Positions 31,686-38,116 are shown, counted from the first letter of the stretch. The stretch: 58,307 nt of DNA from Gammaproteobacteria bacterium (GCA_045561295.1 JBJKYD010000014.1:1-58307); one strand, 5' to 3'. Notes: generated by a model from the letters alone, not told the origin. Numbers and translations are program-made.

Positions 31686-31916
31686 TTAATTCTTTTTTAT
31701 CATAAAGAAGAATTTATTATCTTTTTCTTCTGATGAAAGTATCTCATTGCCAGTTTGAGTTGCAAAAGATTCAAAATCCATTACTGCGCCTGGATCTGTT
31801 GAAATCACATGGAGTACTTGTCCAGCATCCATAGTATTTATCTCTTTTTTAGCTTTAATAATTGGAAGTGGACAATTAAGGCCACTTGTATCAAGTTCTT
31901 TATCAAAATCGCTCAT
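31686..31916 (-). CDS. tusA: TusA-family sulfur carrier
   Basis: LDTSGLNCPLP (CPxP), TDPG..DF. Confidence 0.85.
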   Translation of the reverse strand: MSDFDKELDTSGLNCPLPIIKAKKEINTMDAGQVLHVISTDPGAVMDFESFATQTGNEILSSEEKDNKFFFMIKKN

Positions 31917-32011
31917 TATCTATTACCTCTTGCGTTATAATTATATATAGAGAACTATATTAGTACATTTGGATAATTTAATATAGAAAAACATACATTG
32001 CGAACTAATAA

Positions 32012-33433
32012 ATGTCTAAATATTTCATAGGTATAATCATGGTACTCTCTGTGGGAAGTGCGGCCGCACATGAAGATATTCCTGCACCCAATCTTGGTGA
32101 CACATTAAATAGAACAATAACGCTCTACGATGAAGAGAGAATAGGAAGAAATATTTACAAAAACCTTCAAAAAAATAACTATATTATTGATGATTTTCTA
32201 GTCAATGACTACATCACATACCTAGGAAATAGATTAAGCAGGAATATATCAATGGAAAGGGACTATTTCTTTTTTATGACAAAATCTAATGCTGTAAATG
32301 CATTTGCTGTTCCTGGAGGTTTTATGGGCTTTAATGCTGGCTTATTTACCCTTACTCAAAATGAAGCTCAACTTGCAGGAGTTGTTGCACATGAATTAGG
32401 ACATGTGGTTCTTCGTCATAGCGCAGAAATGATGGCAAGTAGTAATGTCAATTCAATTCCAATGTGGATTGGAATCTTTGCAGGACTTCTTGCAGGAGAG
32501 ACAGAAGCGAGTATAGCTGCTATTCAATCAGGTATAGGTTTCTCAGTTCAAAAAAATATTAATCTTGTTAGAGAAAATGAAATTGAATCTGACAACTTTG
32601 CAGTAATGCTAATGAATAAAAGTAATTATGATCTAAACGAGATGGCAAACTTTTTCCTTTTAATGCAAGGAGACTCAAACAACCAAGAAAATTTAAATGA
32701 ATACTTTATGACTCATCCACTTTATAAAAACAGAATTAGTACTATTAAAAAAAGAGCTCGTGAACAAGTTAATCCTATAAAAAATAGTACTGATGATTAT
32801 TTTTATGTAAGAAATATTCTAGAAAGTAAAATGAGAATATTGAAGAATATGAAATATAAATTTTCAGATGATCCAATACAGAATCATCGCTATGCATTGA
32901 GTTTAGTCAATAGTGGTAAATATACTGAGGCTAGAAAAATTCTCAGTCAAAGTTTCAGCAAGGATCGTTTCAATATTTATCTAGCATCATTGATGTCAGA
33001 GATATTATGGCTTGAAGGCAAAAAATCTGAGTCAAAAGAAATTTTAAAAAAAATACTAAGTATTTATCCAAATAACAACGCTATAAGTCACCAATTATTT
33101 TTTTTCAATATTAAAGATCAGGTAGATCTAGAACAAAGCATCTCCGGAGTTGAATATCTAATGAAATATAACTCTTATAATCCTCAAGCATATAAGATAC
33201 TTGCTGAGGCTTATAGTAAAACAAACAGATTTTATAAATCAAAACTAGCTCTGATAAATTATTATAATCTCAAAGGTAATATAACTATGGCATTTAAGGT
33301 AATAGATGATGGTAATAGTTCAGATAAGCTTACTGATTATGAAAAAGGATACCTTCAAAAGCTAAAAAACAGTATCTTATGTACAACTAATCCGCCCTTA
33401 GAGCCTATATTTGGCAATAAAACCTGTAATTAA
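32012..33433 (+). CDS. bepA: BepA/YfgC-like periplasmic M48 metalloprotease with TPR-like tail
   Basis: Signal peptide, NAFAVPGG, AHELGH, ENEIESD, THP; divergent from tusA. Confidence 0.8.
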   Translation: MSKYFIGIIMVLSVGSAAAHEDIPAPNLGDTLNRTITLYDEERIGRNIYKNLQKNNYIIDDFLVNDYITYLGNRLSRNISMERDYFFFMTKSNAVNAFAVPGGFMGFNAGLFTLTQNEAQLAGVVAHELGHVVLRHSAEMMASSNVNSIPMWIGIFAGLLAGETEASIAAIQSGIGFSVQKNINLVRENEIESDNFAVMLMNKSNYDLNEMANFFLLMQGDSNNQENLNEYFMTHPLYKNRISTIKKRAREQVNPIKNSTDDYFYVRNILESKMRILKNMKYKFSDDPIQNHRYALSLVNSGKYTEARKILSQSFSKDRFNIYLASLMSEILWLEGKKSESKEILKKILSIYPNNNAISHQLFFFNIKDQVDLEQSISGVEYLMKYNSYNPQAYKILAEAYSKTNRFYKSKLALINYYNLKGNITMAFKVIDDGNSSDKLTDYEKGYLQKLKNSILCTTNPPLEPIFGNKTCN

Positions 33434-33474
33434 AAAATGTTTTAATAAAATTGATTCATCTATATAATGGAGCC

Positions 33475-33810
33475 ATGAAATATATAGTAGAATTTCTCTT
33501 AATTATTGTACTGGTTTTACCAAGCTTATCTTATGCAGACAACATTGCAGAAGGTAAAAGTCTCACATTCGACAGGAAGAAAGGTAACTGTTTAGCCTGT
33601 CATATGATAGATGACGGAGAACTTGCTGGCAATAATGGTCCTCCTCTCCTTGCGATGAAAGCGAGATTTCCAGACAGAGAGGTTCTATTTCAACAAATCT
33701 GGGATCCTACAGAGAGTAATCCGTATTCTTTCATGCCACCATTTGGAAAACACGGCGCTCTAACTAGAACTGAAATTAATAAGATAATGGACTATCTGTA
33801 TACATTGTGA
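33475..33810 (+). CDS. soxX: SoxX c-type cytochrome
   Basis: GGAG then ATG 33475; signal peptide, KGNCLACH, GPPL, MPPFG; first gene of soxXYZA. Confidence 0.93.
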   Translation: MKYIVEFLLIIVLVLPSLSYADNIAEGKSLTFDRKKGNCLACHMIDDGELAGNNGPPLLAMKARFPDREVLFQQIWDPTESNPYSFMPPFGKHGALTRTEINKIMDYLYTL

Positions 33811-33817
33811 GGAAAAA

Positions 33818-34279
33818 ATGAAAAGACGAAACTTCATAAAAAATAGTATGCTGTTTGCAGGGGTACTAACAACCTTGCCATCGGTATTATTTGCAAAAAA
33901 ATCTTATGCCGCTTGGCCAAAAACATCATTTGATATTAAAGACCTTACAGATTCTGTAAAAAGTGTTTATGGTCATAATAATTTAGAAGAATCTTCAAAG
34001 GTTAAGTTAAAAGCTCCATCTATTGCTGAAAATGGTGCTATTGTTCCGATAAATGTATCTACAAGTCTAGAAAATGTAGATTCAATAATGATATTTGTTG
34101 AGAATAATCCTCAGCCTTTATCAAGTGGATATCAACTTACTCAACTAGCAGAGCCGTCTATTGGTACGAGACTAAAAATGGGTAAAACATCAAATGTAAT
34201 GGCTGCTGTAAAAAGTGGAGATAAAGTCTATACATCTACTCAAGAAGTAAAAGTAACAATCGGAGGCTGTGGAGGTTAA
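33818..34279 (+). CDS. soxY: Sulfur carrier SoxY
   Basis: Tat signal KRRNFIK, APSIAENGAIVP, C-terminal VKVTIGGCGG swinging arm. Confidence 0.98.
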   Translation: MKRRNFIKNSMLFAGVLTTLPSVLFAKKSYAAWPKTSFDIKDLTDSVKSVYGHNNLEESSKVKLKAPSIAENGAIVPINVSTSLENVDSIMIFVENNPQPLSSGYQLTQLAEPSIGTRLKMGKTSNVMAAVKSGDKVYTSTQEVKVTIGGCGG

Positions 34280-34281
34280 TC

Positions 34282-34590
34282 ATGAGTACTATTAAAATGA
34301 GATCAAAAGAATCGAATGGCGTTGTGACCGTTAAAGCTCTTATTAAACATCCAATGGAGACTGGTCAACGTAAAAATAAAAAGACAGGTGATATGATACC
34401 TGCGCATTACATACAAGAAGTTCATAGTAAAGCCAATGGAAAGGATGTAATAACTATACATTGGGGCCCTGCTGTTTCAAAGAATCCATATCTTACCTTT
34501 AAATACAAAGGAAACAAAGGAGATGATGTTGAAATTTCATGGGTTGATAATCAGGGTAATAAAGATACAAAAATAGGTAAGGTAAAATAG
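34282..34590 (+). CDS. soxZ: Sulfur carrier SoxZ
   Basis: HPMETGQRK, IPAHYI, VSKNPY, WVDNQG. Confidence 0.97.
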   Translation: MSTIKMRSKESNGVVTVKALIKHPMETGQRKNKKTGDMIPAHYIQEVHSKANGKDVITIHWGPAVSKNPYLTFKYKGNKGDDVEISWVDNQGNKDTKIGKVK

Positions 34591-34592
34591 TA

Positions 34593-35420
34593 ATGTTTAG
34601 AAAAATTCTTGCTGTCATTTTGCTTCTACCAGCTTTATCGGTATTAGCTAGTCCAGAGAAGGATTTTGATAAATTCGTTAGTTATTTCAAAGATAGGTTT
34701 CCTAATACGCCATATGAAGATTATAAAAATGGTGTTTATTCTATTGATGCTTCAGCAAGAGAACAATGGGAGGCCATGGAAGAATTTCCACCATACGAAC
34801 TTAATGTAGATAGAGGCGAGGAGCTATTCAATAAGCCATTCAAAAATGGAAATACATATGGATCATGTTTCGAAAATGGCGGAGTAGGAATAAGGCAAAA
34901 TTACCCATATTTTGATACCGATCGTAATAAGGTAATTACACTTGAAGGTGCGCTGAATGATTGCCGTTTGAAAAATGGTGAAAAACCACTCAGCTATTTC
35001 AAGGGCAAGGAGCTAGCTCATGTATCTGCTTACATGGCTTATACGTCCAGAGGTAATGTCTTTAATGTGCAAATACCTAATACTGAAGGAGCTCTAAATG
35101 CTTATGAAGATGGAAAAAGGCTATATTTCACCAAGAAAGGTCAGCTCAACTTTTCATGTGCAGATTGTCATGTATATCAGACAGGTACTAAATTAAGAGC
35201 TGATATTCCAAGTCCAGCTATTGGACATCCTACTCATTTTCCAGTCTATCGTTCTGGCATGGGCAGACTAGTGACACTCCATGAGAGATTTGCAGGTTGT
35301 TTAAATCGTATAAGAGCGAAAAGCTTCAAAGGCGGGAGTGATGAATTAAATAATTTAGAATTTTTCACTACATTTATGAGCAATGGCCTTGAAGTTAATG
35401 GACCTGGCTCTAGAAAATAA
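34593..35420 (+). CDS. soxA: SoxA c-type cytochrome (single CXXCH)
   Basis: Signal peptide, GQLNFSCADCH, FPVYR, ERFAGCLNRIRA active-site Cys/Arg, GPGSR. Confidence 0.96.
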   Translation: MFRKILAVILLLPALSVLASPEKDFDKFVSYFKDRFPNTPYEDYKNGVYSIDASAREQWEAMEEFPPYELNVDRGEELFNKPFKNGNTYGSCFENGGVGIRQNYPYFDTDRNKVITLEGALNDCRLKNGEKPLSYFKGKELAHVSAYMAYTSRGNVFNVQIPNTEGALNAYEDGKRLYFTKKGQLNFSCADCHVYQTGTKLRADIPSPAIGHPTHFPVYRSGMGRLVTLHERFAGCLNRIRAKSFKGGSDELNNLEFFTTFMSNGLEVNGPGSRK

Positions 35421-35444
35421 ATTCAAATAAGCTATACTCATTTC

Positions 35445-35945
35445 ATGACTAAGATTAATGTTTCTAAGTTCATAGCAGTAACTGCTGGACTAATACTGCT
35501 CTCCTCATGCGCTAATATGCAAGCCATGATTGAAAATCAAGTACAAGAAGAAAAAGAGATTTCTGTTGATCAAAAGCTTCAGGTATCAATACCTATCCCA
35601 GATAACTCAAAATATCTTACAAACAAGACTGTCATATTTGGTGAAGGTAATAAGTTTTCTGGAATACTGTATCTACAACATGATCAATCTGCAGATGACA
35701 TTGCAAGCTTTTATAGAAAGAATATGATTGCTGATGGATGGTCTGAAATCGGTATAGTGAGATCACAGTTTATTCTTGTTAACTTTGAAAAGGAGAATAG
35801 ATTTGCAACAATCAAAGTGATTAGAACAATGTTCGAAAAATCTGACTCAGAAATTAGCATAGGACCTAAATCCTCAACACAACTAGAAAAAAGTTTAGAT
35901 ATAGATAGCGGAAGTGTATCTGATGAACCTTTTATTGTTGAATAA
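35445..35945 (+). CDS. Hypothetical lipoprotein
   Basis: Lipobox LLSS-C; FYRKNMIADGW; function not recognised. Confidence 0.8.
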   Translation: MTKINVSKFIAVTAGLILLSSCANMQAMIENQVQEEKEISVDQKLQVSIPIPDNSKYLTNKTVIFGEGNKFSGILYLQHDQSADDIASFYRKNMIADGWSEIGIVRSQFILVNFEKENRFATIKVIRTMFEKSDSEISIGPKSSTQLEKSLDIDSGSVSDEPFIVE

Positions 35946-35949
35946 CCGA

Positions 35950-36930
35950 CTATTCAATAATTATATCTATTACATCCTCTAAGTATAAGTCTCTAAAAAA
36001 ATGTCCGCCACCCTCGAGGATAACTGTTCTAACATTTGATTTATTAATTTCTCCATAACTTTTATAACTATCTAATAATATTTCATCTTCTGTTCCAGAA
36101 AATATAGTTATGGGAGATTTACTGTTATCTATTAAATCAAAAATATTAAATGAAAATGGGTATGCTGATTTATTTTTAGAAAAGTCCAAATATGATTTGA
36201 ATGTTTTAGATGAAACAATGACATTTTCACAAAATAGAAAGTTAATTCTCCTATATCTATCTGCTAAATTATAATTCTCATTACTATTAATAATAAGATC
36301 ATATGGAATACCTAATTCTTCTTCATAATATGCTTTAGTTCCTTTGTATGTATCAATAACTGGGGCTAGAAGGTAGCTTTTTATTTTCTTGTTATCAATT
36401 ATTGATAAGGCTTGCATGACATTTAACCCACCTCTTGAATGACCAATAAAATTTATTTGGTTATATCCTTTTTTAATTAGGTAATTGTACCAGGTAATTA
36501 TTTCTTCGACTGATTCATGCTCATTGTGATTATGGTTAATATCACAAGCTAAAAAATCATCATGTCTATTACTAAACCCATAGCTTAGGTTTATCGATAA
36601 AATATCATGACCTTCTTCAAATAATCTAGAAGAAAGAGTTTGAATTATCTCCATTCCTTTATGAGCTCTCGTTCCATGTACTATTAAAAAAGCAGAGGTA
36701 TTTTGATTCGAGCTTGAAAGTTCTCCAGTAAGCTTTATATTGTTTTTACTTGATATCGTAACTTGTTTTCCAGCAGCAAAGGATAGGCTAGTAATAATAC
36801 AAAAAAGAGTTAAGGTGAAAAAATGGATAGCTAATTTAGGGCGTACAGGATTCGAACCTGTGACAAATGGCTTAAAAGGCCACTGCTCTACCAACTGAGC
36901 TAACGCCCCAAATTTATTAAATCTTCTCAA
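35950..36930 (-). CDS. Secreted alpha/beta hydrolase (start uncertain; frame runs through tRNA-Lys)
   Basis: Signal-like KLAIHFFTLTLFCIITSLSFA, HG oxyanion motif (IVHGT), GHSRGG nucleophile, GTED, GGHFF. Confidence 0.85.
   Translation of the reverse strand: MRRFNKFGALAQLVEQWPFKPFVTGSNPVRPKLAIHFFTLTLFCIITSLSFAAGKQVTISSKNNIKLTGELSSSNQNTSAFLIVHGTRAHKGMEIIQTLSSRLFEEGHDILSINLSYGFSNRHDDFLACDINHNHNEHESVEEIITWYNYLIKKGYNQINFIGHSRGGLNVMQALSIIDNKKIKSYLLAPVIDTYKGTKAYYEEELGIPYDLIINSNENYNLADRYRRINFLFCENVIVSSKTFKSYLDFSKNKSAYPFSFNIFDLIDNSKSPITIFSGTEDEILLDSYKSYGEINKSNVRTVILEGGGHFFRDLYLEDVIDIIIE
36837..36909 (-). tRNA. tRNA-Lys (TTT)
   Basis: GGGGCGT-TA-GCTCAGTTGGTAGAGC-A-GTGGC-CTTTTAA-GCCAT-TTGTC-ACAGG-TTCGAAT-CCTGT-ACGCCCT-A. 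Confidence 0.96.
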
Positions 36931-38116
36931 GAGTTCTTAGTTTTCCTGGTAATACTTTTAAATCTATTAAAGCATTTTTAAGAAGTTCTATGAAACTGCT
37001 TTCCTCATATACTGCTTTATAATACTCGATTTTCATCATTAATGAAGCTCCAAATATTATTGAGAGTAATGTTATAATTGATCCTATAGCAAGAGTTGAA
37101 ACTCCGGATACACCTTGTCCTATCGTGCAACCAAGGGATAATACACCTCCGATTCCAATGAGAACTGCTCCAATAAAATGTCTAAAGAAGTCATGTTTAT
37201 TAGCAAACCATTCTATTCTAAGATTATTACTGATTAATGAATAAACGAAAGAACCTACTATAGTTGAAATTAATGCTGTTACACCAAAGGTAAGATAAAA
37301 ATTATCGAAGACGCTAGAGGTATATATTAGTACCTCTCCCATTGGATTTATAAAGGTGAATGATTGAACTCCTACTGATGGGTAAGGAGTGTCTAAAAAG
37401 TCATTATTTTCAATCCATGCTTGCCCGAGTTCACCGCCTGATATGAGCCATGCAAGAGTAACTACCAAACCTACAACGACACCTGATAATATATTATCTG
37501 ATGACAAGCTTGTGTATGAAGAAAAAATATATTTCAACAAAAAAAAACAAATTAATAATGGTATAAATATTGTTATTAATATGTTTCCAGCATCTATATT
37601 AGTTAATGAAGAAAAAATTGTTTGAACAGACTGGTCTGGTATGCCAAGCTTCGCTAAATCTGGACTTATTGGACTCATCCAACTATGAAAAATTAGTCCA
37701 TAAAAATCGGTCCTGGTCATCAACAATGCCATTAATCCTGCAATAAGTAACACAAAGATAGATTTAAGGTTGCCCCCTCCAATTCTAATTAGTATTTTAT
37801 TTCCACACCCACTGGCAAGAGTCATGCCTATGCCAAACATTATGCCCCCAATTATATACCGCGGCCAGAAAAGGACAGAATTTCTATAAGGTATTCTAGA
37901 TTCACTTACATCAACTATGCCTAAGTATTCGAGTGAAGTAACACCCACAATTGCAGTTGTTATGGCCAACAACCAAGCTTTGAGTCTTGATGAGTCTCCT
38001 ATGTTTACTAAGTCTGATACCGCACCCATGGTACAGAAATTAGTTTTATTCACAACGTATCCAAGAATAAAGCCTAATATCGATGTATAGATTAAAAGTG
38101 TGGTTGTTATATCCAT
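36917..38116 (-). CDS. YeeE/YedE family sulfur-compound (thiosulfate) transporter
   Basis: TNFCTMG, LASGCG, LSLGCTIGQG Cys motifs; multiple TM segments. Confidence 0.92.
   Translation of the reverse strand: MDITTTLLIYTSILGFILGYVVNKTNFCTMGAVSDLVNIGDSSRLKAWLLAITTAIVGVTSLEYLGIVDVSESRIPYRNSVLFWPRYIIGGIMFGIGMTLASGCGNKILIRIGGGNLKSIFVLLIAGLMALLMTRTDFYGLIFHSWMSPISPDLAKLGIPDQSVQTIFSSLTNIDAGNILITIFIPLLICFFLLKYIFSSYTSLSSDNILSGVVVGLVVTLAWLISGGELGQAWIENNDFLDTPYPSVGVQSFTFINPMGEVLIYTSSVFDNFYLTFGVTALISTIVGSFVYSLISNNLRIEWFANKHDFFRHFIGAVLIGIGGVLSLGCTIGQGVSGVSTLAIGSIITLLSIIFGASLMMKIEYYKAVYEESSFIELLKNALIDLKVLPGKLRTLEKI

Follow-up and report, generated by a model that had tools for sequence, protein, structure and literature searches.

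The DNA analysed here (the window) is a contig of 58,307 nucleotides (contig C14) from a genome registered as Gammaproteobacteria bacterium (GCA_045561295.1, JBJKYD010000014.1:1-58307; genome G000, 1,026,543 bases in 19 contigs, completeness 92.38%, contamination 6.77%), and its positions 31,686 to 38,116 hold a sulfur-oxidation locus. In our judgement, this locus is probably the soxXYZA operon of an abundant and uncultured marine gammaproteobacterial lineage with genomes of about 1 Mb, a sulfur oxidizer living on organic carbon, with a nearby gene for a secreted alpha/beta hydrolase as a candidate SoxYZ-docking enzyme. The core of the locus is known and does not constitute a new system, and among its neighbours the hydrolase stands as a credible, testable candidate for a SoxYZ-binding enzyme not described before.

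Regarding the core, all four Sox proteins of the window (SoxX, SoxY, SoxZ and SoxA) exceed the curated cut-offs of NCBI, and SoxA and SoxX carry one CxxCH motif apiece. The other parts of the pathway are encoded on other contigs of the same genome. Indeed, soxB is located on contig C5 (C5:2817-4331; 671 bits against a cut-off of 550), flanked by msrPQ and glyA, and a complete dsrABEFHCMKLJOPN cluster, with its genes in this order and dsrO assumed from its position, is present on contig C13. In this cluster, dsrA obtains 611 bits with dsrB alongside, DsrE, DsrF, DsrH and DsrC are over their cut-offs, as is DsrK with 591.6 bits, DsrM, DsrJ and DsrP match below theirs, and a DsrL-like protein (678 bits) and a DsrN-like amidase are also encoded. 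AprA (989.7 bits) and Sat (378.5 bits) are encoded by adjacent genes of contig C9. The initial annotation had listed dsrAB among the genes worth searching for and had considered that a standard soxB/soxCD set might lie elsewhere: dsrAB are indeed there, within the full cluster, and soxB does lie on another contig, while SoxC (TIGR04555) had no match in this genome at its level of completeness. Over C5:2817-4510, the soxB copy of this genome carries two single-base insertions when compared with that of another genome of the set (G007), to which it is 96.6% identical; near residue 500 its frame is broken, and the final ~60 residues or so fall in another frame that contains stops.

This chain of truncated Sox, reverse Dsr (rDsr) and AprA/Sat is a known pathway, found here without the Calvin cycle. 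The family to which the genome belongs, which is also the whole order, is made up of six genera, represented by 37 species genomes of about 1 Mb each, and the large subunit of RuBisCO was found in none of them (17 of the 37 being of high quality). Since RuBisCO is missing from all 37 while rDsr, AprA and Sat are present, sulfur lithoheterotrophy, as put forward in the initial annotation, fits the gene content. Allochromatium vinosum and the SUP05/Arctic96BD-19 group combine a truncated Sox pathway (SoxXA, SoxYZ and SoxB, without SoxCD) with reverse Dsr and AprBA/Sat, and the lineage of the window shares with these organisms the protein families, the logic and the dsr gene order, and likewise possesses a soxXYZA operon with soxB apart, plus AprA and Sat. 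Unlike them, the family is devoid of RuBisCO, its genomes measure about 1 Mb and soxB is entirely missing from one of its genera. Numerous marine metagenomes contain DNA of the locus, as do metatranscriptome libraries from four studies.

The case for the hydrolase starts from its distribution. Among 397 genomes sampled from the class outside the family, a homologue with an expectation value (E) of at most 1e-10 was found in 44, of which 42 encode SoxB (background 144/397); all 44 encode SoxB or DsrA, and not one of the 239 genomes with neither of them, which span many families, has a homologue. The resulting association with SoxB has a Fisher odds ratio of 52, a value that is overstated since related genomes are not independent, and the reciprocal search returned the hydrolase as best hit in 17 of 17 cases. 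Regarding the two carriers without SoxB, one (G257) possesses SoxY, and in the other (G202) a distance of 1.6 kb separates soxA from the hydrolase gene, on a short contig which begins 84 bases before soxA. In a sample of the whole phylum, the hydrolase was found in 2 of 72 genomes, both with SoxB (background 11/72), one of these two being a strong match from another class. Named relatives are Thioalkalivibrio species, Sulfurivermis fontis, a Thiohalophilus metagenome-assembled genome (MAG) and one Nitrospinota MAG. Within the family, the genus g3 (G023-G026) provides a case of joint loss: soxB is found in none of its four genomes, with a clean msrQ-glyA gap in two near-complete ones, and the hydrolase is absent as well, yeeE following directly after the lipoprotein gene, while soxXYZA, the lipoprotein gene, yeeE, tusA and dsrAB are all retained. 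Because the family is without RuBisCO, the tie between the hydrolase and Sox cannot stem from autotrophy. The co-occurrence of accessory genes with sox, on which the initial annotation had made its proposal depend, is thus found for the hydrolase and not for the lipoprotein, which has no tie to Sox outside the family; of the two candidate undescribed components that it had named, the hydrolase survives, on this co-occurrence and on its predicted binding to SoxYZ, while the lipoprotein is not Sox-specific.

The predicted binding comes from folding SoxY and SoxZ together with the mature hydrolase, which obtained a score of 0.64 (median of three runs) against 0.00, 0.00 and 0.09 for the controls. 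The score mark is attained by 58 of 80 solved complexes and by 2 of 110 mismatched pairs, a calibration which applies only roughly here, the prediction having been made with three chains and with alignments of our own. At least 76% of the contacts are common to the runs, and the predicted local distance difference test (pLDDT) of the partner is at least 87. The confident contacts involve residues 60-61, 92, 280-282 and 285 of the hydrolase, among them E61, R280 and D281, which are invariant and adjoin His277, the presumed catalytic residue, and residues 67, 69, 71, 75, 77 and 118 of SoxY. None of the solved SoxY entries lists an alpha/beta hydrolase as partner, and the score is hence unlikely to be due to a memorized structure. 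In the SoxB-SoxYZ complex (PDB entry 4uwq), SoxB docks on SoxYZ, and the hydrolase is likewise predicted to dock on the conserved face of SoxYZ; it differs from SoxB in being a serine hydrolase instead of a dimanganese thiosulfohydrolase, in a complex that is predicted only.

Several observations weigh against a role of the hydrolase in Sox and, beyond it, against an active pathway in this strain. Outside the family, among 33 loci inspected over up to 9.5 kb per side, a sox gene is near the hydrolase gene in one and in none of the other 32, a dsr gene in three, a yeeE-like gene in one and a tusA gene in one, which is about what chance would give. The neighbours vary: 3 of 17 loci have a radical-SAM DUF3641 protein and others have lipid-type genes, and genes for a VTT/DedA protein, for a fatty-acid hydroxylase and for a glycosyltransferase also occur. 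No more than 42 of the 144 SoxB genomes (29%) carry the hydrolase, so that it is dispensable for Sox, and G202 carries it with no match to SoxB or SoxY. Co-occurrence could moreover be a lineage signal, sulfur oxidizers clustering in certain orders, and because genome relatedness could explain it, the role of the hydrolase is not proven. As to the complex, its score is a confidence of the model and not a measurement, and the carrier arm of SoxY is absent from the confident contacts. Finally, because the frame of soxB is broken, the pathway may be impaired in this strain, soxB being a decaying gene, or the assembly may be wrong at this place.

The lack of clustering, the varied neighbours and the presence in only 29% of SoxB genomes also speak for a rival explanation, in which the hydrolase is an unrelated periplasmic esterase acting, for instance, on envelope lipids or dissolved esters, whose tie to Sox reflects shared ancestry and whose predicted complex is a false pass of the kind seen with the two mismatched pairs that attain the score mark; its closest solved relatives are indeed cinnamoyl/chlorogenic esterases (E 7e-18, by profile match). 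This explanation deserves serious weight, although we would not call it probable, and it has to account for the lack of any homologue in the genomes, from many families, that have neither SoxB nor DsrA, for the loss of the gene along with soxB in genus g3, for its retention in a 1-Mb genome where RuBisCO is missing and a link with autotrophy is thus excluded, and for fold controls at or close to zero. On balance, the chances that the hydrolase works with Sox are about even. The more specific proposal that it is an undescribed Sox accessory enzyme, widespread in sulfur-oxidizing Pseudomonadota, which would dock on SoxYZ and act on a cysteine adduct of the carrier arm, is offered as a tentative one, falling somewhat short of an even chance.

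If the hydrolase does serve the Sox pathway, we infer that it would dock on SoxYZ with the mouth of its active site and that its activity would most likely be directed at an adduct of the SoxY arm cysteine. It could clear an off-pathway adduct (e.g., SoxY-S-sulfonate) or help to unload the sulfane sulfur in an organism without SoxCD. According to a study in which the Sox pathway was rebuilt from purified components, SoxY-S-sulfonate is not used by SoxB and, like unconjugated SoxYZ, stands outside the main cycle, while certain dependencies of Sox enzymes on one another still lack an explanation (PMC5336275). Similarly, the way in which SoxYZ gives up its sulfane sulfur without SoxCD is described as still unsolved in another article (PMC11582611). 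Among the papers listed by our literature search, none connected an alpha/beta hydrolase with Sox, and a 2026 paper on the evolution of Sox has no mention of a hydrolase, an esterase, an accessory protein, SoxK or a lipoprotein.

The hydrolase belongs to a family of secreted proteins of ~300 amino acids, with signal peptides across the family, for which there is no curated family; a Protein Atlas search returned generic alpha/beta hydrolase clusters only. The alignment of the family contains 21 invariant residues. Across 18 sequences, an HGT motif, GHSRGG, D249, H277, an HFFRD motif and two cysteines are invariant, and the serine of GHSRGG, D249 and H277 are presumed, by analogy, to form the catalytic triad. 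Conservation extends to a C-x3-H-x-H stretch, in which the cysteine is invariant and both histidines are nearly so. The cinnamoyl/chlorogenic acid esterases (PDB 3pf8 and 8skm) and Est1E (2wtm) have the same alpha/beta fold and a Ser-Asp-His triad; unlike these esterases, the family of the window hydrolase is secreted, possesses two invariant cysteines, the C-x3-H-x-H stretch and the HFFRD motif, and tracks Sox genomes. Within the order, the hydrolase diverges fast, with 32-66% identity against 64-90% for SoxA, which, together with its absence from g3, would by itself suggest a neighbour without a link to Sox.

The gene model of the hydrolase required a correction. The open reading frame of 326 amino acids listed for it reads through the tRNA-Lys gene, and the conserved protein begins just past the tRNA with a signal-peptide-like stretch. 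In the 12 closest loci (L025-L036), the hydrolase frame is open through tRNA-Lys and gene callers place the start within the tRNA or ahead of it, giving 314 or 326 amino acids; in these loci, the interval from the tRNA to the signal-peptide-like stretch contains no ATG, and two of them have an ATG inside the stretch. In other genera, an ATG is present in the region of the hydrolase start (window 36831-36930). One contig from an RNA library (36707-37238) covers the 3' end of yeeE, the tRNA and the 5' end of the hydrolase gene. In all four RNA-library runs, cover is lacking for the central part of the hydrolase gene (36020-36682) and for a part of the protease gene (32926-33367), and because these data are contigs, the uncovered stretches are uninformative on expression.

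Outside the family, the surroundings of the hydrolase homologues offer some further observations. The radical-SAM DUF3641 protein directly adjoins the homologue in L107, L110 and L112 (G169, G173 and G235). In two loci from one genus of another family (L120 and L122; G296:C8 and G099:C6), the homologue lies ~4-6.5 kb from a dsrC copy and a dsrAB-EF cluster, and in G202 it is situated 1.6 kb beyond soxA and a small lipoprotein gene, adjoining lipA and lipB. Metagenome loci recovered by a scan with the hydrolase came almost solely from the same lineage and hence provide no independent contexts.

Regarding the lipoprotein of the window, no Pfam or NCBIfam family covers it, and its lipobox cysteine is its sole cysteine. 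A profile search revealed a wide family of 461 proteins at E<=0.001, none of them in a Pfam family; Pfam scans of 10 distant homologues gave nothing meaningful, and cluster look-ups returned a single, uninformative name. A first fold based on 12 close sequences was discarded (pLDDT 47.7), and a second one based on 45 sequences reached a pLDDT of 85.1. The core of this fold is possibly similar to those of PA1624 (6td9; VIA-align Z 10.6, root-mean-square deviation 3.5, 98 residues aligned) and of DcrB (6e8a; Z 9.3, root-mean-square deviation 2.5, 90 residues aligned), with a sequence identity of just 4-8%, while Foldseek gave no match against the PDB at E<=0.001 (best E 6.4e-3).

In a rival explanation, this lipoprotein is a working part of Sox, which might for instance tether the system to the membrane or replace SoxK in stabilizing the monohaem SoxXA. 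All 20 family loci examined and 33 of 34 genome loci have its gene 24 bases past soxA, on the same strand, and contigs from two RNA-library runs of two studies bridge both genes (33592-35765 in one run, 35004-35987 in the other), so that it is probably co-transcribed with soxA, although a bridging contig is no proof of a single transcript; the RNA contigs end at 35765, 35987, 35876 and 35878, with no common endpoint. SoxA is moreover monohaem, and in G202, from another family, the end of soxA is likewise overlapped by a gene for a small, unrelated lipoprotein. The distribution of the family, however, speaks against such a role. Outside the order, a homologue was found in 7 of the 397 sampled class genomes, 3 of which encode SoxB, equal to the background, and the three strong class matches have no sox gene within 10 kb. 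G435, a genome outside the order, encodes an orthologue with 50% identity in an unrelated context. Four carriers of homologues (G435, G039, G069 and G430) have neither SoxB nor SoxY, G435 having no SoxA above the cut-off either, and because of these four genomes the function of the lipoprotein cannot depend on Sox. The protein also has no cysteine besides that of the lipobox, its predicted fold appears to be a common one for periplasmic lipoproteins, and the whole region is collinear regardless. We therefore regard a part in Sox as improbable: judged on its sequence relatives, the lipoprotein is a frozen neighbour from a Sox-independent family, with a predicted PA1624/DcrB-like fold. In G435, a low-GC genome of ~1.1 Mb, the orthologue (L055:2641-3114) is encoded between a MORN-repeat-like and an L,D-transpeptidase-like protein. 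In G202 (an unrelated family; the soxA-lipoprotein pair is at L134, contig C86, 85-1322), the small lipoprotein gene encodes 138 amino acids and follows soxA with a start overlapping the soxA stop; it was rejected as a homologue of the window lipoprotein, only the lipobox being aligned (hhalign probability 21.8%).

The initial annotation had also proposed a relay from periplasmic SoxYZ through YeeE to TusA. This relay matches a published model and is hence not new: in the report on SoxT1A of Hyphomicrobium denitrificans, loss of this YeeE-like protein abolishes sulfur oxidation, the protein being needed for sulfur import, and TusA is the proposed acceptor (PMC11582611). By extension of this SoxT model, the sulfane sulfur remaining on SoxY would pass inwards in the window organism through the single YeeE-family protein, then to the single TusA, to DsrEFH/DsrC and finally to rDsr. 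As for SoxT1A/SoxT1B, the YeeE-family gene adjoins the sox genes with tusA nearby, in an organism which must complete the oxidation in the cytoplasm; the downstream system is here rDsr and not sHdr-LbpA, and the window protein has 399 amino acids against the 330-350 stated for SoxT/TsuA proteins in that report (PMC11582611). TusA has a CPLP motif by eye and obtains 56.4 bits with the NCBIfam TusA equivalog, below the cut-off of 78. The YeeE-family protein matches the solved TsuA (PDB 6leo) weakly (E 6.1e-11), and has cysteines in NFCTMGA, ASGCGN and LGCTIGQG, identified by eye as candidate counterparts of the three conserved channel cysteines of TsuA.

YeeE and TusA might instead have a housekeeping role, namely thiosulfate uptake for cysteine synthesis and sulfur supply for tRNA thiolation and the molybdenum cofactor. 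Both genes are single copy in a tiny genome (tusA being the sole tblastn match in G000 at E<=1e-3 and yeeE the only copy found in the assembly), and for this reason TusA must cover any housekeeping role; they lie 5 kb apart within a frozen gene order, and TsuA/YeeE with a TusA-like partner are known to import thiosulfate for assimilation, as cited in PMC11582611. The YeeE-family protein, however, is far below the cut-offs of all the TsuA/YedE models of NCBIfam (with TsuA models, 94.6 bits against 400 and 55.8 against 645), and an rDsr organism without SoxCD needs an import route, for which there is no second YeeE copy. We thus consider it rather unlikely that these proteins are confined to housekeeping, the two roles not being mutually exclusive.

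In the initial annotation, the sulfur module was thought to have been kept by an organism that had shed many housekeeping neighbours. It is indeed present in every family genome in which the locus is assembled, soxA and the lipoprotein gene being detected in the same 34 of the 37 genomes; two of the three others have a contig end next to queC or yeeE, and from the third both queC and the locus were missing. The order ilvC-ilvH-ilvB-tusA|protease-soxXYZA-lipoprotein|hydrolase-yeeE-queC-queE-ruvC is collinear across the family, and, within the reach of the respective contigs, 79 of 80 metagenome loci show the same gene order. The housekeeping genes are no less fixed in position than the sulfur genes, and since the whole region is collinear with these genes included, the neighbourhood alone says little. 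The notion of a new and self-contained sulfur-oxidation system, which the initial annotation favoured, drew on a compact arrangement conserved in every assembled family genome; each core part, however, belongs to a curated known family, soxB, dsr, apr and sat are encoded elsewhere, and the frozen order extends to housekeeping genes, which makes such a system highly improbable. The M48/TPR protease is probably a housekeeping protein tied to Sox by position alone, and the frozen gene order of the lineage appears to be the sole reason why its gene and that of the lipoprotein are found here. Its architecture agrees with the BepA model NF052400 (positions 14-462 of 483), with a score of 212 bits that falls short of the cut-off of 570. 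It is the better BepA match of the two M48 proteins of the genome, the second one (494 amino acids, C9:97981-99465) resembling BepA in its protease half only, with 119 bits.

The features of the locus are collected in the table below. Every gene of the arrangement described in the initial annotation was recovered at its place by open reading frame, tRNA and Pfam/NCBIfam scans, with the hydrolase, tRNA-Lys and yeeE genes converging on the plus-strand series from the protease to the lipoprotein, and tusA divergent from it. The position of tRNA-Lys is the same in 7 of 7 relatives scanned. The G+C content of the window is 0.26-0.35, and a scan for promoters and terminators gave 39 promoter-like sites against 34.4 expected and was uninformative.

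Table. Features of the sulfur-oxidation locus, in coordinates of the window
Feature	Position	Strand	Basis
tusA, sulfur carrier	31686-31916	-	PF01206, E 1.6e-23, 82.8 bits (cut-off 28.6)
M48 metalloprotease with TPR tail (BepA-like)	32012-33433	+	PF01435, E 1.8e-31
soxX, monohaem cytochrome c	33451-33810	+	TIGR04485, 91.7 bits (cut-off 61); CLACH
soxY, carrier with C-terminal GGCGG arm	33818-34279	+	TIGR04488, 162 bits (cut-off 125)
soxZ	34282-34590	+	TIGR04490, 132.6 bits (cut-off 76)
soxA, monohaem	34593-35420	+	TIGR04484, 214.6 bits (cut-off 110); CADCH
Lipoprotein, 166 amino acids	35445-35945	+	lipobox LLSSC
Alpha/beta (serine) hydrolase, secreted	35950 to ~36831	-	PF00561 (Abhydrolase_1), E 1e-7
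tRNA-Lys(UUU), between yeeE and hydrolase	36836-36910	-	ARAGORN
YeeE/YedE-family membrane protein, 399 amino acids	36917-38116	-	PF04143, E 4.9e-53, residues 24-357

Among the genera of this order, g3 is a particular case, as it dropped soxB yet retained soxXYZA. More broadly, the locus belongs to an abundant surface-ocean lineage which, with a genome of ~1 Mb and no RuBisCO, retains the full Sox/rDsr/Apr/Sat chain. Should the proposed function of the hydrolase prove true, a conserved periplasmic enzyme binding the carrier would make the questions of the off-pathway forms of SoxY and of the release of sulfane sulfur directly testable.

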